Shown: in pieces, positions 10,067 to 32,622 of the stretch
How positions within the stretch are numbered: the first letter of the stretch is position 1
Layout of the letters: the number at the start of each line of letters is the position of its first letter
Program-made: the position numbers and the translations under genes
Notes under the pieces: generated by a model
Databases searched by the model: none
What the model was told of the DNA's origin: nothing
Seen by the model: only the letters and a program-made list of their open reading frames with translations
From: a virus
Strand: one strand, 5' to 3'
DNA: 38,758 bases
UHGV virus genome: UHGV-0370973

Positions 10067-10716
10067 TGACGACGATTACTGAAATCATCGGACGAGTGAA
10101 CACGCAACTGGTTGACCCGATGATGGTGCGCTGGCCTCTGGCTGAGCTGTGTGATTATTACAATGATGCTGTGCGGGCGGTGATTCTGGCAAGGCCGGAT
10201 GCAGGCGCAAGTCTGGAGACGCTGAATTGTGTTCCTGGTGCACGTCAGACTTTGCCTGATGGCGCAATACAGCTTCTTGACGTGATATGCCTCAGCGATG
10301 GCAGTGCTATAAAACCGCAATCCCGTGAGGTGCTTGATGCACAGTATCCCGACTGGCACATGCTGAGGGGGAAACCGGAATGCTTTATCAGCAGTGACCT
10401 TGCCCCGCGCGTGTTCTGGCTGTTTCCGGCACCGGAGGAGGCTGTGAGTGTTGATGCTGTGGTCAGCCGCATTCCGGAGGCGGTGTATGTTCTGACGCAG
10501 GATGATGACACGCCTGTACCGCTGGAAGAGGCTTATGTTAACCCGCTGGTTGACTGGATGTTGTTTCGTGCATTCAGCAAGGATGCAGCCGGTGGTGCAG
10601 AGTCAGGACTGGCAGCACAACATTATCAGAGTTTTGTTGAGCAGCTCGGGATTAAACAGGGTGCAGACAGTGCATTGTCTGCCCGCAAGAAGGTGTTTAA
10701 CGGAGGTGGAATGTGA
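10066..10716 (+). CDS. Hypothetical virion protein
   Basis: 216-aa ORF coupled to its neighbours; its stop overlaps the GTG start of the tail fibre gene. Confidence 0.45.
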
Positions 10717-12647
10717 GTGTTGTTGTTTCGGGGACGCTGAAATCTCCTGATGGTGAGGCGATATCAGGCGCAAATATTACCCTGACGGCGCTGACAGTTT
10801 CACCGGATGCGCTCAGCGGCACCAGTGCGTCAGCAGTGACTCGTGACGGCGGGTATTACGGAATGACGCTGGAGCCGGGGGAGTATGCGGTTTCTGTGAC
10901 GGTGAAAGGGAAGACTGCTGTCTACGGACGTGTGCGTATTGAGGGGACTGAAAGTACGGTGACGCTCAATATGCTGTTACGCCGCAGTCTTGTTGAGGTG
11001 AGCATACCCGGAGAACTGCTGACAGATTTCCGGCAGATACAGAACAATGTGGCGGATGACCTTGCCACGATTCGTCGTCTGAACGAAGACACGGCGGTGA
11101 AAAATAATCAGGCTTCACAGTCGAAGGAAAGCGCTGCTGCCAGTGCGAAGACTGCATCAGAAAGCGCGAAGGCTGCGACCAGCAAAGCGACGGAGTCTGC
11201 ACAAAAAGCCAGTGAGGCTGCAGAGGCGGCGACCCGGGCAGGTGAGTCTGAAAAGGCAGCGGCAGCTGACGCTAAAGAGGCCAGACGACATGCTGAAACC
11301 GCCAGAGTGGCTCAGGAGGCCGCCGGAGACGTTCTTAAACGTGCTGAGGCTGCTACAGTTAGTGCTGAAGAAGCCAGACGTATGGCTGAGAATGCACGAG
11401 GACCTAAAGGCGATACAGGGCCGAAAGGTGATGCTGGTCCTCGTGGTGAAACAGGTCCGGCGGGTCCGCGTGGGGAGAAAGGTGAGCAGGGAGAGCGCGG
11501 ACCTCAGGGCATACCGGGCCAGAAAGGTGATACAGGAGAACGGGGACCTCAGGGAGTGCAGGGGCCAGCTGGCGCAACAGGGCCATCTGGCCCACGTGGT
11601 GCGACCGGGCCACAGGGAGCAATGGGGCCGCGTGGTGAAACCGGGGCCAGAGGCGAAAAAGGAGACCCGGGGGGGCCTCAGGGACCAAAGGGGGATGCTG
11701 GTCCGAGAGGTGAGCCGGGGCCGAAAGGTGACACCGGCCCACGTGGAGAGGCCGGACCACCCGGACCACAGGGTCCGGCAGGGCAAACCGGCCCGAAAGG
11801 GGATAAAGGTGAACCCGGCGCAACAGGTCCGGCAGGTCCCGCAGGCCCTCGGGGAGAAACCGGCCCCGCAGGTCCTGCGGGTCCCGCAGGCAGTGTCGCC
11901 AGTGTTCCGGATGCCAGCACATCACAGAAAGGTGTTGTACAGCTGAGCAGCGATACCAACAGCGATGATGAAACAAAAGCGGCAACCCCAAAGGCTGTGA
12001 AAGCGGTAATGGCAGAAGTGCAGGCAGCAAAAACGAAGGCAGAAGAGGCAGCAACCCGGGCAGCAGTCCCCGGACCGAAGGGGGACAGGGGGGAACCTGG
12101 CGCACCTGGTGCAGTGGGGCCCGCAGGCCCACGGGGACCGGCTGGTGCAGCTGGTCCCAAAGGTGATGCAGGCCCGGCAGGGCCACGAGGTGAAAGGGGT
12201 CCAGCGGGGGCACAGGGTGTTCCGGGGCCGGTTGGTCCGGCAGGTCCTGCGGGTAAAACGGGGCCACGAGGTTTGCAGGGAGAAACAGGAAGACAGGGCC
12301 CGACAGGTCCACAGGGCCCGACAGGTGAACCCGGACCACAGGGACCACAAGGGCCAACCGGAAGGCTGGTACCCGGGGAAATTTACAGCATCGGAACATA
12401 CATTATTGCCGCACTAGCCCCGTATATAACCGACATCGGCAGAACCTATCAGCCAGGAGAAACTGTATCGGGTTCACGCCTTAAGCGATGCGCCCTAATC
12501 AAAGACGAAAACGGAAACTATATGAAAGCTAACACCGATGGCATTGACGGCAACCTATCCTCAGTTCCGGGCTCATGGATGGTGTGTAATGAAATTACGT
12601 CGACAAATGACAATGAAAGCATCGGGCTGTTCCAGCGCGCATACTGA
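10713..12647 (+). CDS. Side tail fibre protein (lambda Stf-like) with collagen-like repeats
   Basis: GTG start. N-terminus [24 protein letters not shown] resembles lambda Stf MAVKISGVLKDGTGKPVQNCTIQL; central [28 protein letters not shown] matches the Stf motif [28 protein letters not shown]; two long Gly-X-Y tracts. Confidence 0.8.
11399..11890 (+). repeat. Collagen-like Gly-X-Y block 1 within the tail fibre
   Basis: About 160 residues of [23 protein letters not shown]..., with one register interruption (GDPGGPQG). Confidence 0.85.
12066..12365 (+). repeat. Collagen-like Gly-X-Y block 2 within the tail fibre
   Basis: About 100 residues of [25 protein letters not shown]... Confidence 0.85.
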
Positions 12648-13245: not shown

Positions 13246-13565
13246 CAGATAAAAATATGGGGGAAACATTTCTTTCCCTCATGAACTATTCCTCCTGTAA
13301 ATATTTTATGTTAACTGAATAGTTAATTTTTTCTGATGTTGTAATTTTGTTCACAAATTACAGTGTAAGCAGATGTGAAACAGCAAGTCTGACTGGGGTA
13401 AGTTTTTTCTGATATCTGTTCCGGCGGTGTGGTCGTATGCGTGAGCAGGTATGCCCAGAATAATGTAAGACAAATCCTAAATTTATAAAATTAATTTTTA
13501 AATTTATTTTCGGAATATCCTGAAAAAAGCCGTAATTAATCAGACTTTTTTATGAGTGTGAGGTG

Positions 13566-13593
13566 TTGCGGCTGATTTGTATACAGATAATTT
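13566..13593 (+). promoter_or_regulatory. Candidate sigma70 promoter for the eib-like gene
   Basis: TTGCGG-N16-TAATTT in an AT-rich region that is conserved upstream of both eib-like copies. Confidence 0.3.
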
Positions 13594-13608
13594 AACAGGA
13601 TATCCATA

Positions 13609-15072
13609 ATGAGTAAAAAGTTTACAATGACACTCCTGTCATCTTCTCTGGCCGGGCTTCTGGTGATGAGTGGTGGGGTGAGTGCGCAGGAAGAAAAATA
13701 CACAGTGCCGTATGCCACAGGTAACAATAAATGGGGGAATACCTATGAAGTTGTAAAGACAGGCGATAATGGTAACTTCAAATACGAAGTAAAAGAGAAG
13801 AACAACGGCAAGAGGACACTTTTCACATTTGATTCAAATGGGGATGTAATAATCAATGGCAGTGGCATTACGTACACAATTCATGACGGTGCGCTGAACG
13901 ATTTTGCTCAAACAGCTGAGAAAAAAAAGAATGGACCGTCTCAGTCGCACAGAATGACTGATAGCGTTGTTCGTGATGTATATAACAAAGTATACAGTCT
14001 GCAGAGAACAAAAATTACAGGTTTCAGCGTCGAAGATGGGGAGAATGGGAAGGTTTCTCTGGGTAGCGATGCGAAAGCCTCTGGTGAGTTCTCAGTAGCT
14101 GTTGGTACAGGGGCCAGAGCGGATAAAAAATTTGCAACAGCAGTGGGCTCATGGGCTGCTGCGGACGGTAAACAAAGTACAGCTCTGGGAGTGGGAGCAT
14201 ATGCCTATGCAGATGCTTCAACAGCCGCCGGAACAGCTGCTTATGTTGATGGTTCTGCTATTTATGGTACCGCTATAGGTAATTACGCAAAAGTGGATGA
14301 AAATGCAACAGAAGGTACTGCGTTAGGGGCAAAGGCAACAGTAACAAATAAAAACAGTGTTGCATTAGGAGCTAATTCACGCACAACCCGTGACAATGAG
14401 GTTTATATCGGTTATGAAGCAGAGCCGGGTAAGGCTTATAAAACCCGGGTGCTTGGTGGTCTGAGTGACGGTACTCGTCCCTCAGATGCTGCAACCGTTC
14501 GTCAGGTTGACCGTGTAAAAGACAGTGTTGAGCAACTGGCTCAGGATACGAATACCCGCCTTGTAGTCGAAGCGAAAAAGTCTCGTGAATATACAGACTC
14601 CAGAACGACAGTTGGTGTGAACCCTGACGGAAAACTTACCCGTGCAGAAGGTGCGACTAAAACTATCGCCGTCAATGATGGTCTCGTTGCTCTGTCTGGC
14701 AGAACAGACCGTATTGATTATGCAGTTGGTAGCGTTGACCGCCGGGTTACTAAAAATACACAGGCTATTCAGTCCAATACTCGCCAGTTGCAGGAGCATA
14801 ATGCACGCCTGAACAGTCAGCAGCGTCAAATTCGTGAGAATCACGAAGAGATGAAGCGTGCAGCAGCACAGAGTGCAGCGCTGGCGGGGCTTTTCCAGCC
14901 GTACAGTGTGGGGAAATTCAACGCCACTGCTGCCCTGGGGGGGTACAGTGATAAACAGGCTGTTGCCGTGGGTGTTGGTTACCGTTTCAACGAGCAGACC
15001 GCAGCGAAAGCGGGTATTGCAGCGAGTGATGGCGATGTGTCCTACAACATGGGCGTTAACTTCGAGTTTTAA
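13609..15072 (+). CDS. Eib-like trimeric autotransporter adhesin (YadA-type C-terminal anchor)
   Basis: Signal peptide [26 protein letters not shown]; YadA-head-like repeats ([26 protein letters not shown]); coiled-coil stalk; C-terminus [28 protein letters not shown]...YNMGVNFEF is a typical TAA membrane anchor ending in an aromatic residue. Confidence 0.85.
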
Positions 15073-15097
15073 TTGCTGAAAGTGACATGAAGTATGG

Positions 15098-15129
15098 CGG
15101 CAGGCGCAGGACTCTGGTCTGCCGTTTTT
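15098..15129 (+). terminator. Intrinsic terminator after eib-like gene 1
   Basis: Stem cggcag / ctgccg followed by TTTTT; the counterpart after copy 2 has stem cggcaggc / gcctgccg. Confidence 0.5.
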
Positions 15130-15160
15130 CATGGGGCATAAAAAACAGGAAGGTGCTGCG

Positions 15161-15631
15161 ATGAAGGTGATTCTGGCTACCAGGAACCGCTATCTGGAGT
15201 ATGGTCTGCAGGCGTTACTGAAGGGGCACAGTGTGATACTGGCGAGGGAGTTTTTCCTGCCGGAGAACCGCCGTTATATCCCGGACTTTGACGAATCCTG
15301 GCTGATAATCAGTGATGGCCTGCTGGGCAGGCTGATGCGCTGTATGTTCCAGGGGCGTCATTTTCTGCAACTGGATGCGGAGTTGCTCCGTGATGGTGAG
15401 CAGATAAGTGATGCCATACACAACGGCGTCTGGACGTATAACAGTGCTGCCCGCCCGCTGACGATGTCAGAGATGGTGGTGATGTTCGGTTATGTCTACC
15501 GCCAGTCGAGACCCTGCCGCCTTGCCAGTGAGATGGGTATTAACACAAAGACGGTGAATACCTTTCTGTATACGGGAATGGCGAAAAACGGGCTGTATGG
15601 TGTGAGCGTCAGACGGCTTGTTGGTGCCTGA
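15161..15631 (+). CDS. Atypical LuxR/FixJ-type transcriptional regulator with receiver-like N-terminus
   Basis: C-terminal LTMSEMVVMFGYVYRQSRPCRLASEMGINTKTVNTFLYTGMAKNGL fits the LuxR-type HTH pattern; N-terminal [20 protein letters not shown] resembles a receiver domain start but lacks the acidic pocket. RBS aggaagg lies 8 nt upstream of ATG 15161. Confidence 0.55.
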   Translation: MKVILATRNRYLEYGLQALLKGHSVILAREFFLPENRRYIPDFDESWLIISDGLLGRLMRCMFQGRHFLQLDAELLRDGEQISDAIHNGVWTYNSAARPLTMSEMVVMFGYVYRQSRPCRLASEMGINTKTVNTFLYTGMAKNGLYGVSVRRLVGA

Positions 15632-19882: not shown

Positions 19883-20620
19883 ATGAAAAGTATCATGAAA
19901 TTTTTTGCGTGTGCAGTTCTGGTGATGAGTTGCTTAACTGCACAGGTAAATGCAGCATCAGGCGATAGTACGGTATCTCTCGGGTTTGCACACATACGCT
20001 TCCCCGGGCTGAAGGATTTTGTTAGAGACGCGGGTGTTTATAACCGGGATACGTTCAGGAATGTTGTAAACGTAAACCATTTTAATTCATCAGCTGAATA
20101 CGAAAATGCTATTGCCCGGGGGCATGACGGCACAGCCAAAAGCCCCCTGGGGATGAGCATCAGGTATCGTTACGAGATAACTGATGAACTGGGTGTTATA
20201 GCCTCTTTTACATGGGCGCGCTCCATGACTAATGCGCAGGCATTTATTGATGTTAAGCCTTCCGATCCATCACGAGAGGTAAAAAACCCGGCAGCTTCAG
20301 CGAGAACTGATATCAGGGCTAATTACTGGAGTCTACTATCCGGTCCTTCGTGGCGGTTTAACGAATACCTCAGTGTGTATGCAATGGCTGGCATGGGGGT
20401 TGCAAAAGTCACCACTGACTTGAAAATTAACGACAATCTTAATCATGGTGCCGGTAGTTTTTCTGAAAGTAACAGCACCAAAAAAACGTCTATTGCATGG
20501 TCTGTCGGCGCGCAATTTAACTTCAATGAAAGTGTTACTATGGACGTCACTTATGAAAGCTCAGGCTCTGGCGACTGGAAAACTGATGGTTTATTTGCAG
20601 GCATTGGCCTGAAATTCTGA
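19883..20620 (+). CDS. lom: Lom/Ail/PagC-family outer-membrane beta-barrel protein
   Basis: Signal peptide MKSIMKFFACAVLVMSCLTAQVNA; C-terminus VTMDVTYESSGSGDWKTDGLFAGIGLKF matches lambda Lom VVDIAYEGSGSGDWRTDGFIVGVGYKF. Confidence 0.85.
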   Translation: MKSIMKFFACAVLVMSCLTAQVNAASGDSTVSLGFAHIRFPGLKDFVRDAGVYNRDTFRNVVNVNHFNSSAEYENAIARGHDGTAKSPLGMSIRYRYEITDELGVIASFTWARSMTNAQAFIDVKPSDPSREVKNPAASARTDIRANYWSLLSGPSWRFNEYLSVYAMAGMGVAKVTTDLKINDNLNHGAGSFSESNSTKKTSIAWSVGAQFNFNESVTMDVTYESSGSGDWKTDGLFAGIGLKF

Positions 20621-20642: not shown

Positions 20643-20668
20643 AACCCGCTGTGATGGCGGGTTTTTTG
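20643..20668 (+). terminator. Intrinsic terminator after lom
   Basis: Stem cccgc / gcggg with loop tgtgatg, followed by TTTTTT. Confidence 0.6.
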
Positions 20669-20852
20669 TTGCCCGTGCAGGGCAAAAATCGTAGATTATG
20701 CGCGGGTGCCTTTCGGCTGATGGCTGGAGGGAGAACCTGAAGGCCTGATGTGGAAAGGCCCCGAGTCAAACATTTTGTTTAACCCGAGGCCCTAACCATC
20801 ATACCTTAAGCAAGTAGAAGGTTAGCGCCTCTCCACTCAGGAGGCAAGCGCT

Positions 20853-20993
20853 ATGTCGCAAAAATCGCTCATCACCGTCACAATTTGTATGACGGTAATC
20901 TTCACCATCTGGATGTTACACGGCTCGTTGTGTGAGTTCCGGCTGAATTTGTGGGGAGCGGAGTTTGCGGCGTTCTTACAGTGTAAGCAGTAG
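20853..20993 (+). CDS. Hok/Gef-family type I toxin (46 aa), absent from the ORF track
   Basis: MSQKSLITVTICMTVIFTIWMLHGSLCEFRLNLWGAEFAAFLQCKQ has a TM helix followed by SLCEFR and EFAAF, matching Hok KSLCEIR and EVAAF; RBS aggagg 8 nt upstream. Confidence 0.65.
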   Translation: MSQKSLITVTICMTVIFTIWMLHGSLCEFRLNLWGAEFAAFLQCKQ

Positions 20994-21002
20994 GAAAACC
21001 GC

Positions 21003-21451: not shown

Positions 21452-21503
21452 CTGCCACTGTATTCATCATCGAGCGTAAACCCACATTGCAATTCACATT
21501 CTG

Positions 21504-21526
21504 ACCCTGCTCCGGCAGGGTTTTTT
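21504..21526 (+). terminator. Intrinsic terminator
   Basis: Stem ccctgc / gcaggg with loop tccg, followed by TTTTTT. Confidence 0.6.
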
Positions 21527-21544: not shown

Positions 21545-22201
21545 ATGGGCGGAAGTAAAGGTGGTGGTGATACCAAAGTAAAACCAACAGCAGCGCAAAT
21601 AGCACAGGAAGAGGTGGCCTGGAAAGGGTGGCAGGATTACAAAAATATTCTCCGTCCGGCAGAAGATAACTTCATGAAAAAGGTCGATGACCTTAACAGT
21701 GAGCAGCAGTACGAAAATATCGCAGGCACAACAAATCTTGGGTATCAGAAACAGTTTGGTGAAGCGCGAAGGGAGCTGGCGGGTAATCTTGCTCAGTCCG
21801 GCGTTGACCCATCCAGTGGTCGTTTTAATGCAGTAATGGATGCAAATCAAAGCGACCAGGTGATCGGGCAGATTGACACGACCACACGGGGGCAGGTATC
21901 GCAGGCAGATAAATATATTGCCGGGCTACAGGATGTTGCGGCTCTCGGTTCCGGTCAGAAGGCAGATGCGTTACAGAGTTTTAACTCCCTGGCTGACAGC
22001 AGTCTGGCAAAAGCCAAATCGGATGCACAGGCGGCGTTTACGAAACAACAGGGGCGAGCTTCTCTTGTTGGCGCTGGTCTGGGAGCTGTAGGTGCGTACG
22101 CGATGCATAAGGCTGGCGGTAACGGAGGTGGTGGCGGCGCTAAAACGCCAGGCACCGGCGCTAATGCTATTCAGCATCAGGCTCAGAACTGGAGACTGTA
22201 A
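21545..22201 (+). CDS. Hypothetical virion protein (Gly-rich C-terminus)
   Basis: RBS gaggag; first of a coupled gene block leading to the giant ORF. Confidence 0.5.
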   Translation: MGGSKGGGDTKVKPTAAQIAQEEVAWKGWQDYKNILRPAEDNFMKKVDDLNSEQQYENIAGTTNLGYQKQFGEARRELAGNLAQSGVDPSSGRFNAVMDANQSDQVIGQIDTTTRGQVSQADKYIAGLQDVAALGSGQKADALQSFNSLADSSLAKAKSDAQAAFTKQQGRASLVGAGLGAVGAYAMHKAGGNGGGGGAKTPGTGANAIQHQAQNWRL

Positions 22202-22203
22202 TT

Positions 22204-22650
22204 ATGGAGTATGGCAAATACGAAACTCTCGCAAGGGCTGGTTATTCAGGCGCAGCCCGCCCACAGGGTGACTGGCAGACGTCAGCAGCGCTGACACGCC
22301 AACAATACGACGACTGGCGAACCAGATATTTGCCCCGCGTGGCAAGGCTGGCTGACCTTGGCGAGAACAACAGCCTGATGAATGCGCAGCTTGCCCGGGT
22401 GGGCGGCCTTGCCACTTCCAGTCTCCGTACAGCGCAGATGGCGCAGGATAACCAGATGGCGAGATACGGGGTAAGCCGCCCGGATAATCCCAACAGTAAC
22501 ACACTGGGTTTGCGTAATGCTCTGGCAATTGCTGGCGCGAAAAATGGTATCCGTGAAGCAGAGCAGGATCGCCAGATGAACATACTGACGGGGGCTTCTG
22601 CACCTGCAAGACAACAACTGAGTGTTGGCGGAAAACTGGTGTCAGCGTAA
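22204..22650 (+). CDS. Hypothetical virion protein
   Basis: 148-aa ORF tightly packed with its neighbours. Confidence 0.45.
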   Translation: MEYGKYETLARAGYSGAARPQGDWQTSAALTRQQYDDWRTRYLPRVARLADLGENNSLMNAQLARVGGLATSSLRTAQMAQDNQMARYGVSRPDNPNSNTLGLRNALAIAGAKNGIREAEQDRQMNILTGASAPARQQLSVGGKLVSA

Positions 22651-22659
22651 GGGGGCAAT

Positions 22660-22911
22660 ATGGGATACGGTTTACTGGATATTGCGAATCAGTCGCGGCG
22701 TGAGGCATTACAGGGAATAAGTGATGCCGACAGACGACGTGAAGAAATTGAGGCCGCGAACAAACAGATGGCGGCGCAACAGAAAGCGCAGAACAAACAG
22801 AATATCGGCACGGGAATTGGTACGGGTGCAGCTATGGGCGCTGCTGTTGGTGGTCTCCCCGGTGCGGCTATTGGTGCTGTCATAGGTGGTATTGCTGGTT
22901 CTTTGTTTTAA
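22660..22911 (+). CDS. Small glycine-zipper membrane protein
   Basis: C-terminus IGTGIGTGAAMGAAVGGLPGAAIGAVIGGIAGSLF; RBS aggggg. Confidence 0.5.
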   Translation: MGYGLLDIANQSRREALQGISDADRRREEIEAANKQMAAQQKAQNKQNIGTGIGTGAAMGAAVGGLPGAAIGAVIGGIAGSLF

Positions 22912-22921
22912 GGAGTGGTGA

Positions 22922-24187
22922 ATGAGCGGATTTGCACAGGGTTTACTTGCCGGATTCAGCACGGTTGACCAGGCAATGACCCGTCGTAAGGAACTTGGTT
23001 TGCGAGAAGCACAGCTTGCTCAACAACAGAAAAATAACGAGCGCGATTTTGAATTTGCACAGTCGCAGTTTGAACATAATAAAGACGTTGATCAGCGGAA
23101 CTTTGATTACAGAGCCAAAGTCGACGACCGTAATTATGCACTGCAGGAAAGGGAGTTTAACGCCAACCAGAATTACCGGAATGCGTCGCTGGGTATGGAG
23201 CAGCAGCGACTCCGGATGCAGAAATACAACCAGCGACGGCTTGAGTATAACGATATGCTGGCGCGCGATCAGCCTGTGATGGCGGCGCTTGGAAAGGCTG
23301 TGGATGCTGGCGATCGGGATGCAGCAATGCGTCTTTACGGCCAGTTGTCAGAGGGTAATCCGCTGAGGCTGATGGCGAATGATGGCTATGTAGCGAAAGC
23401 GGGTCAGGCCGTGAACAACCTGCAAAAAATCTTTGATGACAAGCCGGACAGGGCGATCGCTTCACTCAATACCCCGGAAAATCTCGATGTGCTTTCCGGC
23501 GTGTTTGCCCCGGAACTACAACAGCGTATTGGCATGCCTGATTCAACCGGGGAAAAAACGATAAAAGGGGCCAGGATTGGCAGTATCGTACCGGCGCAGC
23601 AGGAAGGGTACGTACTTATTGGCCTTGATCTCACATACAGCGATGGCTCCACCGCGCATAAACCTGTAACAGAATACGGCAGTGCGCACCCTGATGATCA
23701 AACCGTGCTGGCGATACCCGTTGATAAGGCTATCGCTCAGGTCAGGGATCGCAGCAAATTTGCAGAGATATCGAAAAATTATGGTTATTTTATGCCGAAG
23801 CAGCAGGGACTTTCTCTGAAAGAGCTTCAGAAGGGGGCCAGCAACGTAGCGGCGGACGCGATCAAGAATGGCGGTAATGCACAGGCTGCGGTGGATGAAT
23901 ATTATGCTGCAACTGGTTCACCGCAACATCAGCAGAAAATTCAGCAGCAAAAAATTCAACAAGGGATTACCAGTTGGGCGGGTGATGATCCGGATAAGCA
24001 GGCATTCGCCAGAGAAGTTGCTTCCCGTCAGCCAGAAATGCTGGAGCCTCAGAATCAGAAATTGCTGGAGAACGGGTATGCGAATTTTCTCCGTATTCAA
24101 AAGGCCAGGGGGGAACAGGCCAGAGATGATAGTGCGGCCTCTGCATCTGAGTTTATCCGTGGTCTGAAACAGAATTACGCGCAGTAA
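22922..24187 (+). CDS. Hypothetical virion protein
   Basis: 421-aa ORF with RBS aaggag, directly upstream of the giant ORF. Confidence 0.5.
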   Translation: MSGFAQGLLAGFSTVDQAMTRRKELGLREAQLAQQQKNNERDFEFAQSQFEHNKDVDQRNFDYRAKVDDRNYALQEREFNANQNYRNASLGMEQQRLRMQKYNQRRLEYNDMLARDQPVMAALGKAVDAGDRDAAMRLYGQLSEGNPLRLMANDGYVAKAGQAVNNLQKIFDDKPDRAIASLNTPENLDVLSGVFAPELQQRIGMPDSTGEKTIKGARIGSIVPAQQEGYVLIGLDLTYSDGSTAHKPVTEYGSAHPDDQTVLAIPVDKAIAQVRDRSKFAEISKNYGYFMPKQQGLSLKELQKGASNVAADAIKNGGNAQAAVDEYYAATGSPQHQQKIQQQKIQQGITSWAGDDPDKQAFAREVASRQPEMLEPQNQKLLENGYANFLRIQKARGEQARDDSAASASEFIRGLKQNYAQ

Positions 24188-24218
24188 TTCACCATTCCCG
24201 TTAATACTATTTCCTGAT

Positions 24219-24244
24219 ACCCGGTCATTGTGCCGGGTTTTTTT
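24219..24244 (+). terminator. Intrinsic terminator-like hairpin before the giant ORF
   Basis: Stem acccgg / ccgggt followed by a T-run. Confidence 0.45.
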
Positions 24245-24255
24245 ATGGAGTCTGT

Positions 24256-27200
24256 ATGGCTTATTCCGATGAACAGCGCCCTGAAGCGCAATTTGGCAAC
24301 CAGAACCGCAACAGCCTGAACATTCAGCTGCCGGGCGAGACTGACAGCTATGATGCGTTTTTCTCCGATCCCAATCGCTGGAAGGACAACAGCACGTCGT
24401 TCAGCCTGGGCGATGTATTGCCAACTATGGGGAAAGGTGTCGCCCAGTCCGTCCGGGGGGCAGGGGAAATGGCCCGTGGACTCGGTGATGCGATGATTCA
24501 GAACCCGGTAAAAACAGGGGCGCGTATTTTAAATGAGTTCAGCCGTATGGGGCTGCCGGGAGTCGCAACTGTTCAGGATATTTTTGTCGGTGGCAGCAAG
24601 GGGGCGGATGAGGTCATCGACACTCTGCCTGATGGAAAAAATGCGGTTACTGATACTGTCGGTAAAGGTCTGAAGGTCACAGGCAAGGCAGTCAGTGGCG
24701 GCGCTAAAGCCTCGGATGAATGGCTGACTGGCAAGATGTCGCCGGGGGCGCAGCGGGCGCTGAATACACCGATGACTGAAGGATATGATGATTCTGCGGT
24801 CTGGGTGGCGAAGGGCGTAAACCTGATTGGTGCCCTTGTACCTGATATGGTTGCAGGCGGTGTGACTAAAAAGCTGGGTGAAGTCACTCTGCGAAAAGTG
24901 CTGACCGCCGGGCTGGAGAAAAAATACATTGCGGCAGGGATGCAGCCGGAAAGAGCTACCGCACTGGCAGCAGAAGCTGTCGATAAAAAAATGCCGGATT
25001 TATTCCAGGCAGGCCTGATCACCCATTCCTCAGCCAGCGCACAGGGGCAGAGTGCAATGGCAGCAGCAGACTCTGTTCTTAACGCGGATTACTCTGAGCT
25101 GGCGAAGTCCCCGAAATTTCAGCAGACGTTTTTGTCAATTGATGCAGATCCGCAGCACGCACAGCTTACTGATCGCCAGAAAATGGATCTGGCAAAAGAG
25201 CGTGTTGCCGATGAGGTGCGCGCGCAGCTGGCAACCGATCCTGAATTGCTGGCTGTGAATGCCATGGCGGCAAAACTGGGCGATGCTCAGTTGTTTAATC
25301 TGGCGATGCGGGGCACGGCGAAGACCGTTAAAAGCGGCATTGTCAGAAATGCCACGGAACAGGGGACGATTAATGCGGCGCAGGGCGGCTATTCGCGTTA
25401 CCAGGAAAATATGACGTTGCGTGAGACTGCCGGAATGGATATATCACCATGGGAGGGGGTAGCTGACGCAACGATCGAAGGAGCCGCTCTTGGTGCAGCG
25501 ATGGGCGCACCGTTCGGTGCGGTTGCCGGATATCGTGGAAAACGTCAGGCCGCAGAAGAAACCGCCATGCGTGAGGCTGAAGTCGTACAGCAGGGTGAAG
25601 CAGCCCCGCAACCCGAACCGGCTGATCCGGTGGCACAGCATCGCGAATCCATGCAGGGCATGAATCGCGAGCAACTTCTGGAACAGTATGCTGATGCGGA
25701 TATGGCACCTGAGGTAGACACGTCTGCCGTTCATCGCCGGGAAGCCGCCAGCCAGCTGTTAAATGAACTGGATGAACAGGCGAAGCGACAGGCGGTGATG
25801 GATGAGCTGAAGGCGAAGCCGCGCCCTGAACTGCTTGAGGAATACCGAAAACTCAGCCTGAAGGAAGGGCGTACTGATACTGAAGAGCAGCAGTTACAGG
25901 CTATCCGTGATGTGCTTCGCCCTCAGCAGGAGGCCAGACCGGAGGCACAGCCACAGCCGGAAAATGCGGATGATGGCGACGGGAGTATTTACCCGACGGT
26001 GCGGTTCCGCGATCCGGATGAAGTTCGTATTGAAATTAACGGGAGTGGTGCGTCCAGACCAGCAGAACGCATTGAAAAGGTGCGTCCGGACAACCGTTAT
26101 TTCACGGATGAAAAAAGTGCTCTGGGGAGCGACGTTTTCCGCAATGCCAGCGCCACCGGCCTGAAACCGTCCGTAGTGAAGAAAGGCGAGAATCAGTATG
26201 CCGTTGAAATGGATAATCCTGCGTTCTCTGAAGATGTGGCAACGGAGACCATTAACACCCTGGCTGACGGAGAGCGTATTGCTGATGCTGAACCGATGGA
26301 GCAGCCCGCGTTCATGCGTGACCCGCGATTCCGTGGTTTCACGGGGGATGATACAGAAGTGCAGGCCCGCCTTGCCCGTGGCAACGCGCCGACGGCAGAG
26401 GAGCTTGTACGTTCACAGATGGCTGAAGGTGATGCCGGTCCGACAGCACAGGAGTTAACTGAGCGTCCACGCCTTCCCGCTCCCGGCGATATTCATCCCG
26501 GACAGGGATATCCGTTACCAGGAGAAGTGGCGCGTACGCCGGATGAAAATCAGGCCGGACGTGGTGGTCGTTTTACCACAACCGGTGAGGTGAAGGGCCA
26601 GAGTTTCCAGAAAGGACGTGCGCAGGCACCGGAAAATGCCGCTGGTCGCCAGGGGGAAATACTGGAGGGCGAACCGGTTCGTCGTGGTCTGCCATCACCG
26701 GATGAGCAGAACGCCACAGCACCAGTGCGTGAAGGACTTCCTGCACCTGAACAGCGTGGGGTTGATATGCCACATCCTGAATCACTCCCTCGTATGGTTC
26801 GTGACTCCCTTCCGGAACTGGCACAGCAGGCAGAAGCGCGCAGACAGACCGGGGATAATCGCCAGACCATAACCGATGTTCCGGATACTGAGGTGCCGGT
26901 GCCGGTAGATAAACCGAGCACTCACCAGCAGGCGCGTGGTGCAAAAATTGAAGACTTTGGCGAGGAGATTAAGGGCGCGGCAAAACACCGTTATGCACAG
27001 CTTGCCGAAACACTGGGTAAAACGCTGGAAGACAGGGATTATTTCACGCAGCCGCTGAGCAAAGTGTTCCCGAAACCGGACTATGCAAAACTGGCGAACG
27101 AAGGGGCCGACGCTGACACACTGGCAATGATTGCGCTGTACCGCAGTGATATTCCCGCGAAAACGAAACTCAATGCGGTGAAGTGGGTGGAGAGTGTAAA

Positions 27201-30200
27201 GAGCATCCGCACAAGCGTGGCGGGAATGCTGGAAGGAAAAGTGACTGCCGGACGGCTTGCTGAGTGGATGGAGGGAAGAATGCCTTCCCGTTATGCGGAT
27301 ACCTGGCAACTGTTACGCACGCTGCCACCTTCACAGATGGACAAGGCTTCTGCTTATCGGGTGGTATCCGGTGTGTATCAGGCGGCCGGAGGGAAGCGTT
27401 ACGATCCGCCACAGAAACTTTATTCACTGCGCAATAAGGACAATAAGGGGAGTAACCTCTTTTTCTCGGAAAGCAGGGATGAATTACTGACAAAGGCGAA
27501 AGCCTGGTTTGCAGAGCAGGAGGAAAAGTCACGGGCGAAAGGTGATGAAAAAACAGCACCGTCACCAGATGACAAAATCAGCTTTGACGTTTACCGGAAT
27601 ACCCGTAGTGGCGATATTTTTATCGCTTACGGCAAAAACAAAATGCGGGTGAGAGGTGGTTTTAAGTCAGCCAGTGATGCGCGTAAGTACATTGATTCAC
27701 ATCGTGATGAGCTTGTTCGTCATGTGAAGGAGATGCGGGAGATTTCGCGTGAGGAGCAGCGTAACGCCACTAACCGCGACCGCACCGGACCAGAACGCCG
27801 CAAAGGGGATGTTTCGCCGGAGCAGTTCAGTGATGCGTTTGGTTTCCGTGGTGTGCAGTTTGGTAATTATGTGGAAGGTCCGCGTCGTCAGGCTGATTTG
27901 AACCGGGCTTATGACTCGCTGCATGACCTGGCTGACGTGCTGAACGTTCCGACAAAAGCGCTTTCCCTGAATGGTCGTCTTGGGCTTGCTTTTGGTGCCC
28001 GTGGTAAGGGTAAGGCGGCGGCACACTATGAGCCGGGTGAGGTGGCAATCAACCTGACAAAAGGTAACGGACCGGGGGCGCTGGCCCACGAATGGTTCCA
28101 TTCACTGGATAATTATTTTGGTCGTTATGATGTTTCCACTGACGGGAAGATCACGTCAGGTGGCGACTATATGACGGAAGCACAACGTGCCGGGCGCGTA
28201 TTTAAAGACGGCAGATATGTTGATGCGGAATATCCGGTACGTCAGGAGGTTTACGACGCGTTTAAAGGCGTGATGAAAGCGATCAACAGCAGTGACATGC
28301 CGCGTCGTTCAGCGCTTCTCGATGAGGTGCGCTCAAAACCGTACTGGTCAACGGATGTTGAAATGGCGGCGCGTGCCTTTGAGCGTTATGTTCAGGATAA
28401 AGCGCGTACGGCTGGCGTGGAGAATGATTATCTGGTCAATATCCGTAAGGCACCTGAGCACAACACAGATAACACCTGGGCTTATCCGACGAATGCGGAA
28501 CTGGATGGCGGTATTCGTGATGCATTCGATCACCTGTTCAGTACGCTGAAAACCCGTGAGACGGACAAGGGCGTTGCGTTTTATTCCCGTAAGGGCGTGA
28601 CCCGCACACCTGAAGGCAATCTCATTTCGGATGTTAACCGCAGTGCGGAAGCCAAAGGCAGCCCGGTCCCGCAGGTTGAAGCGGTTGCCCGTGGCGTGAT
28701 GAGTGGCATTAAGGACAGTGACCTGAAGGTCCGCGTGGTGAAGTCACAGAAAGAGGCTGAAGCGCTGGCGGGTGAATCGTTCGACGGTTACGGCAGGGTG
28801 CATGCGTTCTATCGTCCGGATAAACGTGAAATTGTCCTGGTGGCGGATAACATTCCTGACGGGCGGACCGTTCGCGAGAAGCTGCGTCACGAGATTATCC
28901 ACCATGCAATGGAGCATGTAGTCACGCCAGCGGAATATCAGACGATTATTAAGACCGTGCTGAAAACCCGTGACAGTGATAACGCCACCATCCGTGAAGC
29001 CTGGCGTAAGGTTGATGCGTCTTATGGTAAGGAATCACCGGAAGTGCAGGCGGGTGAATTTCTGGCACATATGGCGGAGAAACAGCCGAATAAATTTGTG
29101 GCGGCGTGGGAGCGTGTTGTTGCCCTGGTCAAAGGGGTACTGCGTCGCACGGGGTTACTGAAGCCGACAGAGCTGAACGATATCAGACTTGTTCGCGAAA
29201 CTATTCGCACGTTAGGCCAGCGTGTGCGGGAAGGTTACACGCCGCGTGAGGATGGCGCGGGCGCATCGTCTCAGTACCCCCGTAGTGGTAAACCTGATCC
29301 GTTCAAAGTGCCGGAAGGTGAGGGCGAGCGTTATCGTGATGACCTTGCCAGAATGATGAAGTCGTTACGTTCTGGTGCAATGACTGCAAACATCGGGCGT
29401 ACGCCGCCGGTATTGCGCCACCTTGGCGCACCAGATTTGCCGCTGGTTATCTCCCGCGACACTGTGCGGAAGGCAACCAATGGAGTGAAACATGTGGTGC
29501 CAATGGATGTTATCGAGAGACTTCCTGAGCTGATGCACGATCCGGATGCAATTTACCGTTCCGCGACAGAAAGAAATGCGGTTGTGATGCTGCTTGATGC
29601 CGTGGATAAAAATGGTGATCCGGTGGTGTCGGCAGTGCACATGAAGGCAACAGATAAACGAATAGAAATTAACAAGGTGGCTTCTGTATATGGAACAAAA
29701 GGGGGGATGAACAAAGCTAATAGCCTGGATAAAGCAGGTTTGACGCTTTACCGGAAGGAAAAATTAAGCCGCGATAACCCTCAGTACAGTGGGCTTCAAT
29801 TGCCCAAAGAGGAGCGTTCTTATCGCGGCTCTGTAGATAAAATACTCTATCCTGAAGATATTCGCAAGGGGCCGTATTACTCCCGTACCAGCAGTCTGAC
29901 ACCGGAAGAGACAATTGCATCGCGTTTTGTGCGTCAGATGCAGGATAAATTCCAGGTGCTGAAAGCTGTTCAGGAGAACATCCGTAAAACTGGCGGAAAA
30001 ATAGACGACAGTAACAACGCTTATATGGCGGAAGAACTCTTCCACGGGAAGGCGGAAAACGACCTGAACGTGATGAAGGAGCGCTACGTTCAGCCACTGG
30101 CTAAATTACTGGCGGACTACAAAATTGCGCAGGCCGATCTGGATGAGTACCTCTACGCCCGTCACGCGCCGGAACGTAACGCGCATATCGCGAAAATCAA

Positions 30201-32622: not shown

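Follow-up and report, generated by a model that had tools for sequence, protein, structure and literature searches.

Organization of the locus

The virus genome UHGV-0370973, a stretch of 38,758 nt referred to below as the window, contains a giant open reading frame (ORF) at positions 24256-32622. A preliminary description, made from the sequence letters, had put forward this giant gene as a candidate for a polyvalent virion or ejection protein. Our analysis leads in the same direction: the product is likely an ejection protein of polyvalent build, the largest among the internal proteins of its prophage. This prophage is one of the short-tailed lambdoid phages of the 933W/phi24B type (Sepvirinae), with a capsid protein of the N4-gp56 family, and the giant gene is the last gene of the virion operon, after the portal, capsid, adaptor, fibre, nozzle and needle genes. 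The end of this operon is arranged as follows (aa, amino acids; PSMs, peptide-spectrum matches).

21545-22201, plus strand: 218-aa protein, no cysteine, phrog_611; phi24B gp51 (523 PSMs), homologous to the "virion structural protein" gp71 of Ralstonia phage GP4
22204-22650, plus strand: 148-aa protein, no cysteine, phrog_596; phi24B gp50 (129 PSMs in virions)
22660-22911, plus strand: 83-aa glycine-zipper protein, no cysteine; its phi24B counterpart (86 aa) is weak in virions, with 13 PSMs
22922-24187, plus strand: 421-aa protein, no cysteine, phrog_601; Sp5 ORF79 and phi24B gp48 (1634 PSMs)
24219-24245, plus strand: terminator-like hairpin (7-bp stem) with a run of seven T, between the 421-aa gene and the giant gene
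24256-32622, plus strand: giant gene, 2788 aa, ~307 kDa, no cysteine; ATG at 24256, stop codon at 32620-32622

The uninterrupted 8.4-kb frame noted in the preliminary description is genuine, as the probability of an open frame of this length arising by chance, calculated from the base composition of the window, is log10 P = -59.8. The frame also follows a block of small co-directional genes including one for a glycine-zipper protein, as had been stated. A GGAG ribosome-binding site at 24247-24250 lies 5 nt before the ATG, and the region upstream, back to the preceding stop codon, holds no in-frame ATG, GTG or TTG. GenBank places the start of the phi24B orthologue 13 codons further 5' (MPGHCAGFFYGVC...), across the terminator-like hairpin (24217-24255 here). 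Since the corresponding codon in the window is ATA, no other start is present, and the extension would bring two cysteines into an otherwise cysteine-free protein, the shorter start at ATG 24256 is more likely to be correct.

The giant gene is already known: earlier work has annotated it, deleted it, detected its product in virions and read that product as a polyvalent ejection protein. It matches 186 phage records at 90-98% identity (93-98% at the DNA level), mostly Shiga toxin (Stx)-converting phages, occurs in 426 of the 5426 complete E. coli genomes, and has a 100% identical copy in a prophage of E. coli JNEC-KY173, which RefSeq labels "LPD5 domain-containing protein". The protein is ~94% identical over its full length to phi24B gp47 (vb_24B_48), which has the same position and neighbours; the two differ most in the linker at about aa 801-1000, with 71-83% identity and indels. 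Its Sp5 counterpart is ORF80 (ECs1242), and phrog_616 aligns to it end to end. The prophage is 97.7% identical to phage GER2 and represents a separate lineage within the 933W/phi24B-type group. Shiga toxin genes are carried by phages of this type and pass with them from one E. coli strain to another, and the giant protein is essential for the poorly understood entry of these phages into their hosts.

Packaging and essentiality of the orthologues

In the orthologous phages the giant protein is a late-operon product that is packaged essentially whole, is essential and is not part of the ordered shell. ORF80 of Sp5 (2793 aa) is required on a K-12 host too; in the deletion mutant, excision and DNA packaging proceed normally and the heads are normally shaped, while the particles are non-infectious and are not bound by anti-tail-fibre antibody (PMC5155283). 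Knockout of ORF79 (421 aa), located just upstream, gives the same phenotype (PMC5155283). In a preprint on phi24B, gp47 was abundant in purified virions and absent from cryo-EM and negative-stain images; the authors named LPD5, LPD1, LPD38 and MuF-C in the protein and proposed that it is a packaged ejection protein (10.64898/2026.04.10.717836). The same work described a diffuse density in the adaptor lumen that is lost on ejection (10.64898/2026.04.10.717836).

Virion proteomics had been proposed in the preliminary description as a way to check the interpretation, and the published data for the 94%-identical phi24B orthologue place the protein in virions. According to the proteome file, gp47 accounts for 10,962 PSMs, second only to the major capsid protein (17,998). 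The gel slices are ordered by decreasing mass: the portal (79 kDa) peaks in slice 5, the major capsid protein in slice 11, and the gp47 counts in slices 1-4, above the portal. Six regions of gp47 (N-terminus, linker, LPD5, zincin-2, PBECR and C-terminus) are each represented by 80-231 PSMs, and the active-site peptide of zincin-1 is also present. As these peptides derive from the whole chain, gp47 including its enzymatic cargo is packaged largely intact. When PSMs per length are normalised to 12 portal copies, gp47 comes out at roughly 15-23 copies per head; the same scale puts the nozzle at 5-6 copies, the adaptor at 11 and the fibre at 14-22, where 6, 12 and 18 are expected.

The proteome sheet labels phi24B gp48 as "Transcription factor?", and the preprint set aside "a transcription regulation factor" and "a homolog of a bacteriocin" as contaminants (10.64898/2026.04.10.717836). 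These two would correspond to gp48, the 421-aa protein, and to the 83-aa glycine-zipper protein. Their position, the essentiality of ORF79 and their lack of cysteine suggest that both are members of the ejection operon.

Cysteine suppression in the giant gene and the upstream block

The giant protein has no cysteine in 2788 residues where 21 would be expected (P ~5e-10; the other genes of the window average 0.77% cysteine). The four ORFs directly upstream (21545-24187, 870 aa) also lack cysteine, so that five adjacent genes, the giant gene included, form an unbroken cysteine-free block; the products of all five were detected in phi24B virions. Cysteine is likewise absent from gp68 (3224 aa), gp69 and gp71 of GP4 and from the virion RNA polymerase (vRNAP) of N4 (3500 aa), and the family sharing the C-terminal module of the giant protein has 8 cysteines in ~52,000 aa (0.02%). 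A study of phage DEV found that cysteine suppression is conserved in the ejection operon of the Schitoviridae, which encodes small, mid-size and giant proteins equivalent to T7 gp14, gp15 and gp16, and attributed it to passage through the periplasm (PMC11445570). In DEV the C-terminal domain of the giant protein binds the mid-size tunnel protein (PMC11445570).

The five-gene block looks like a complete ejection operon. The traits of podophage ejection proteins, namely cysteine suppression across the operon and a small membrane protein accompanied by a mid-size partner, are found here, with the 83-aa protein, which matches Pfam Gly-zipper_YMGG (E = 4.5e-6, below the gathering cut-off), as candidate for the small membrane protein and the 421-aa protein as candidate for the mid-size one. 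BLASTP of the 421-aa protein against GP4 gp69 and N4 gp51 and gp52 returned no match. Its tie to Vibrio phage D56 is by PHROG membership only, and the partners in GP4 and Burkholderia phage CSP3 are assigned by position.

Domain architecture of the giant protein

The family libraries Pfam, NCBIfam and PHROGs were scanned with the giant protein. Four Pfam families matched above their cut-offs, LPD5 (aa 1045-1194), LPD1 (1355-1434), MuF_C (1744-1833) and LPD38 (2471-2676), which supports the proposed polyvalent virion or ejection protein. A PDB sequence search with the whole protein gave no match at E <= 1. An AlphaFold2 model covering aa 895-1900, built from a 50-sequence alignment (mean pLDDT 79.5), resolved five separate domains in aa 895-1830. 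The resulting architecture is listed below.

24256-25575, plus strand: N-terminal region, aa 1-440; no Pfam domain, lineage-restricted to E. coli and Salmonella
25480-25530, plus strand: perfect glycine zipper (GxxxG)4 read from the sequence, G409/G413/G417/G421/G425
25576-26937, plus strand: linker, aa 441-894 (~450 aa), rich in P, E, Q and R and of low hydrophobicity
26938-27354, plus strand: helical domain, aa 895-1033 (AlphaFold2), with conserved IxDFGExxxGAxK and PLSKxxPxPxY
27355-27816, plus strand: LPD5, aa 1034-1187 (Pfam, AlphaFold2); beta-sheets plus helices
27817-28587, plus strand: zincin-1, aa 1188-1444, including LPD1; metallopeptidase-like (Pfam, AlphaFold2, conservation)
28666-29235, plus strand: zincin-2, aa 1471-1660; minimal HExxH domain with HEIIH at nt 28888-28902
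29320-29745, plus strand: PBECR/MuF-C, aa 1689-1830 (Pfam MuF_C 1744-1833); BECR RNase-toxin fold
29863-32619, plus strand: C-terminal module, aa 1870-2788; helical for the most part, plus a single small beta domain
31666-32283, plus strand: LPD38, aa 2471-2676 (Pfam), within the C-terminal module

Homologues of the N-terminal ~450 aa amount to 48 matches, all enteric and at least 63% identical. The most hydrophobic segments of the giant protein are aa 182-200 and 407-425, and the glycine zipper at aa 409-425 is a candidate membrane-inserting segment. Judging from its composition, the linker at aa 441-894 is probably disordered. The helical domain that follows always directly precedes LPD5, and LPD5 ends in an invariant R1169...N1173..R1176.G1178 motif.

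At the junction of LPD5 and zincin-1, the motif R...N..R.G...R (aa 1169-1182, nt 27760-27801) is confidently modelled, with R1169, R1176 and G1178 kept in 39 of 39 homologues. Binding of nucleic acid is one possible role for it; alternatively, it may act as a pro-segment of the neighbouring zincin or as a site that this zincin cleaves.

The preliminary description had pointed to a single HExxH motif (ALAHEWFHSLD). This motif, HEWFH at aa 1278-1282 (nt 28087-28101), is present and sits inside a modelled zincin domain and not in a region lacking a metallopeptidase-like fold. A second one, HEIIH at aa 1545, had been overlooked, and the protein has two zincin domains instead of one; 0.03 HExxH motifs are expected from the composition. 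In zincin-1 the key residues are H1257 (AHYE), H1278-E1279-x-x-H1282, D1285 and E1369/E1376. The signature AHYE...HEWxHxxD...ExxARxFE occurs in ~95% of 48 homologues, down to ~30% identity. Zincin-1 fits the phage-type MPTase clade of the 2017 polyvalent-protein paper (PMC5512222) and matches CLCA_X with E = 1.7e-44, below the cut-off. Because LPD1 falls inside this domain, the LPD1 Pfam model represents the C-terminal half of a peptidase-like domain.

In zincin-2, which no Pfam model matches, four residues (H1545, E1546, H1549 and E1601) do not vary among 10 homologues that are 16-39% identical. An hhalign comparison of the two zincins is in register but weak (E 1.3e-3, probability 19%). Both have a gluzincin layout in the AlphaFold2 model, where the HExxH helix comes after a three-stranded sheet and a later helix supplies a Glu. 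Fold similarity to solved zincins is present, and the structures compared and their tabulated values are as follows.

Certhrax N-terminal domain 8.2; anthrax lethal factor 7.9; MtfA 7.5; TTHA0227 7.5
PPEP-3 7.0; M32 carboxypeptidase 6.9; Spartan 6.5; Projannalysin 6.4
Selecase 6.1; ArdC 5.9; Wss1 5.7; IrrE 5.7

All the above indicate that the giant protein possesses two conserved zincin-type sites, putative metallopeptidase sites.

The PBECR domain conserves H1746, D1762, S1769 and N1806. Possible counterparts of the family's catalytic positions are H1746, found in 13 of the 14 sequences compared, and S1810, found in 12. The domain is exchanged as a cassette among close relatives, which are 37-38% identical in PBECR and 94-98% identical in the flanking zincins, and the mosaic look attributed to the protein is thereby confirmed. 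Concerning the folds that had been suggested, a peptidase is present (the two zincins), but an ADP-ribosyltransferase, a transglycosylase and a classical nuclease are not found in this copy. Partner domains differ among 1468 homologues, which reveals domain shuffling. Together with several unrelated domains and the location among virion genes, this is the pattern of the polyvalent proteins defined, along with the LPD domain families, by Iyer, Burroughs, Anand, de Souza and Aravind in 2017 (PMC5512222). By that definition such a protein joins 2-15 unrelated domains, LPD types among them, and its gene lies with the virion or late genes of a phage or with genes for conjugation.

A conserved C-terminal module

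The C-terminal ~900 aa were modelled with a pLDDT of 86.7 and a pTM of 0.83, and contain moderately hydrophobic Gly-rich helices at aa 2444-2575. A profile search with this module recovered 19,505 cluster representatives down to E <= 1e-3, of which 7,727 reached E <= 1e-30, the ~19,500 clusters being defined at 50% identity. The module is conserved as a single unit, with at least 97% coverage down to 33% identity, and for the 150 best hits (699-5181 aa) the aligned region without exception runs to the C-terminus. It stands alone or behind a methyltransferase, an ART-PolyVal domain, a PBECR domain, or a combination of SLT, methylase and helicase.

Sequenced phages carrying the module include Stx phages, ~100 Vibrio phages, Ralstonia GP4 and its relatives and Burkholderia phages; Bacillus phage Palmer has it in part. 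The module-bearing giant gene always closes the virion operon and comes after the gene of a 420-530-aa virion protein, which is phrog_601 in the Stx and Vibrio phages and phrog_9667 in GP4 and CSP3. From these sequence comparisons, the module appears to be a constant chassis and the region in front of it an exchangeable cargo.

Comparison with known systems

The closest systems are the orthologues phi24B gp47 and Sp5 ORF80, virion-abundant proteins with the same LPD5, LPD1, MuF_C and LPD38 domains and absent from the cryo-EM shell. The polyvalent proteins of Iyer et al. are alike as multidomain giants in a virion-gene context with an MPTase hub, PBECR and LPD domains, and the giant protein carries their phage-type MPTase signature, a His ending strand 2 and an Asp three residues after HExxH. 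Stx phages are not mentioned in that paper, which treats LPD38 only as a phage-specific domain, with no ~900-aa unit and no chassis and cargo pattern.

The giants of GP4 (gp68), CSP3 and D56 share the C-terminal module at 26-42% identity over 83-100%, are encoded at the same place in the gene order and come from virions of related architecture. GP4 has the tail most like that of phi24B (10.64898/2026.04.10.717836); the GP4 capsid paper does not mention gp68. Their cargo differs: SLT and LPD3 in gp68 (3224 aa); SLT, an Eco57I-type methylase, a helicase and LPD3 in the CSP3 giant (4647 aa); and no Pfam match besides LPD38 in the D56 giant.

The vRNAPs N4 gp50 and DEV gp71 are also cysteine-free giants (3400-3500 aa), packaged in T=9 heads whose capsid protein is of the N4-gp56 type. 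They adjoin mid-size and small cysteine-free partners, use their C-terminal part for encapsidation or partner binding and contain a zincin domain. N4 gp50 differs in being an RNA polymerase, which the giant protein does not contain, and in its copy number of ~4 as against the ~15-23 estimated for the orthologue of the giant protein. A Pfam scan of N4 gp50 detected no LPD domains. The T7 gp14-gp15-gp16 ejectosome shows the same order of a small membrane protein, a mid-size protein and the largest protein last in the operon. T7 gp16 has an N-terminal SLT, as do GP4 gp68 and the CSP3 giant, and SLT is absent from the giant protein described here, which is much larger and has enzymatic cargo. T7-related families were not found in the Pfam and PHROG scans, in which gp16 itself was not compared directly.

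Proposed role of the giant protein and alternatives

We infer the function of the giant protein after ejection as follows. After release of the needle, it would exit through the portal-tail channel with the DNA, largely unfolded, and cross the oxidising periplasm, and this passage would be the reason for its total lack of cysteine. Together with the cysteine-free 148-aa, 83-aa glycine-zipper and 421-aa proteins it might help to build or line the DNA route across the envelope. The C-terminal module would be the constant structural part, responsible for packaging, for binding the portal or partners and possibly for membrane insertion via its Gly-rich helices. LPD5, the two zincin-like metallopeptidase domains and the PBECR RNase-fold domain would be the exchangeable cargo in this copy. 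The zincins most likely would cut the polyprotein itself and/or host proteins inside the cell, and PBECR most likely would bind or cleave an RNA target and be under arms-race pressure.

Several points weigh against this interpretation. No ordered internal core was seen around the phi24B portal, and no segment of the giant protein reaches classical transmembrane hydrophobicity. A Foldseek search of the PDB with the C-terminal module found no significant analogue (best E 0.26). By hhalign the module has no homology to the N4 gp50 C-terminus (probability 0.2%), so that the N4 parallel is a functional analogy only. The copy-number scale is crude, and the smear of gp47 in gels could be storage degradation rather than processing. 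Finally, the tail-less Sp5 deletion is unlike ejection-protein mutants of T7, P22 and N4, and a morphogenetic role may be primary.

The last point is the core of one alternative, in which the main task of the giant protein lies in building the virion, as a tail-assembly or morphogenetic factor, perhaps the energy-using AAA+ ATPase that was suggested in 2016, and the host never receives it. The DNA-filled heads of the Sp5 ORF80 deletion, which do not bind anti-tail-fibre antibody (PMC5155283), agree with such a factor, and the Sp5 authors noted a match to COG1483, a "predicted ATPase" (PMC5155283). However, a Walker A motif ([AG]xxxxGK[ST]) is not found in the giant protein, and the AAA+ suggestion is thus unsupported; nor does any ATPase family appear in Pfam, NCBIfam or PHROGs. 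The abundance in mature virions, with all regions represented, is unlike a catalytic assembly factor, and total cysteine avoidance is common to the giant protein and known ejected proteins. We consider this alternative quite improbable. The ejection interpretation leaves room for a structural function in the head as well, for example stabilisation of the portal at tail docking, and the tail-less knockout suggests that, unlike in T7, P22 and N4, internal proteins are also needed for a tail-competent portal vertex.

The phi24B preprint offers another view of the cargo, a wall-degrading role that it assigns to "MuF-C" (10.64898/2026.04.10.717836), and on this view the metallopeptidase domain would degrade peptidoglycan and clear the wall for a conduit through the periplasm. 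The SLT transglycosylase found at the N-termini of the GP4 and CSP3 giants is absent here, so that a different means of breaching the wall would be of use; but the structural neighbours of the zincins and the dedicated SLT in the relatives disfavour a role on peptidoglycan, which makes it unlikely. The label "DarB-like antirestriction" in PHROGs and GenBank, in turn, would make the giant protein a dispensable carrier of DarB-type anti-defence effectors. It derives from phrog_10089, which matches aa 2346-2676, and GP4 gp68 is annotated in the same way. This match, however, is confined to the shared C-terminal module, the Pfam scan of the giant protein contains neither the N6-adenine methyltransferase nor the superfamily 2 helicase domains, and the orthologue is essential even on a K-12 host (PMC5155283). 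Such a carrier is very hard to reconcile with these results.

Membership in DarB itself is refuted, as the protein does not fit the DarB definition and the label was transferred from the shared C-terminal module. Identity as a conventional tape-measure or tail-fibre protein, which the preliminary description had named as the outcome that would overturn its proposal, is excluded: neither has a match in Pfam, PHROGs or NCBIfam, and the phi24B tail proteins have all been assigned to genes other than gp47.

The interpretation of the giant gene product as a polyvalent ejection protein is thus supported but was already in the literature. What still deserves interest is the very widespread and structurally novel C-terminal module, together with what becomes of the cargo and which targets it has. 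We tentatively propose, as a possibility that falls somewhat short of an even chance, that the LPD38 module is a structurally unprecedented and very widespread packaging and ejection chassis. With the 420-530-aa partner and the small glycine-zipper protein it would constitute a third kind of podophage DNA-ejectosome that injects swappable enzyme cargo, and phi24B gp48 and the "bacteriocin-like" protein would be genuine ejection proteins.

Other features of the window

Just downstream of the giant gene, 32670-34587 is an 81-88% identical paralogue of the YadA-like/DUF4376 cassette at 13296-15571, which lies beside the tail-fibre gene; the prophage therefore has two adhesin-like cassettes. The downstream copy comprises an ORF with a YadA-type anchor (32984-34027) and a second ORF (34042-34587). 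In the otherwise 99.9-100% identical prophage of JNEC-KY173, the YadA-like gene is interrupted by a ~1.2-kb IS4-family (ISAba1-like) insertion element (L001 29138-30317). As this gene is intact in the window (insertion site at ~33386), the window represents a related but different genome or an earlier state. Two segments match JNEC-KY173 in reversed orientation: 33698-33775 (78 bp), the reverse complement of a sequence ~340 bp downstream, and 38340-38758, the last ~420 bases, in the S6-peptidase gene. The reversed orientation could stem from a local inversion, a rearrangement or a repeat effect.

Directly beyond the late region of the prophage, a large ORF (34923-38504) encodes an S6-family serine protease autotransporter (SPATE) of virulence type. 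Between the needle gene and the cysteine-free block lie two morons, one for a Lom/Ail outer-membrane protein (19883-20620) and one for a Hok/Gef toxin (~20850-21000), flanked by terminator-like hairpins at 20643-20663 and 21503-21522. A spike in G+C content at 11000-12000 (0.62 vs ~0.52) falls in the tail-fibre gene (10713-12647), where it matches the collagen-like Gly-X-Y repeats described for the fibre of Sp5 and phi24B.

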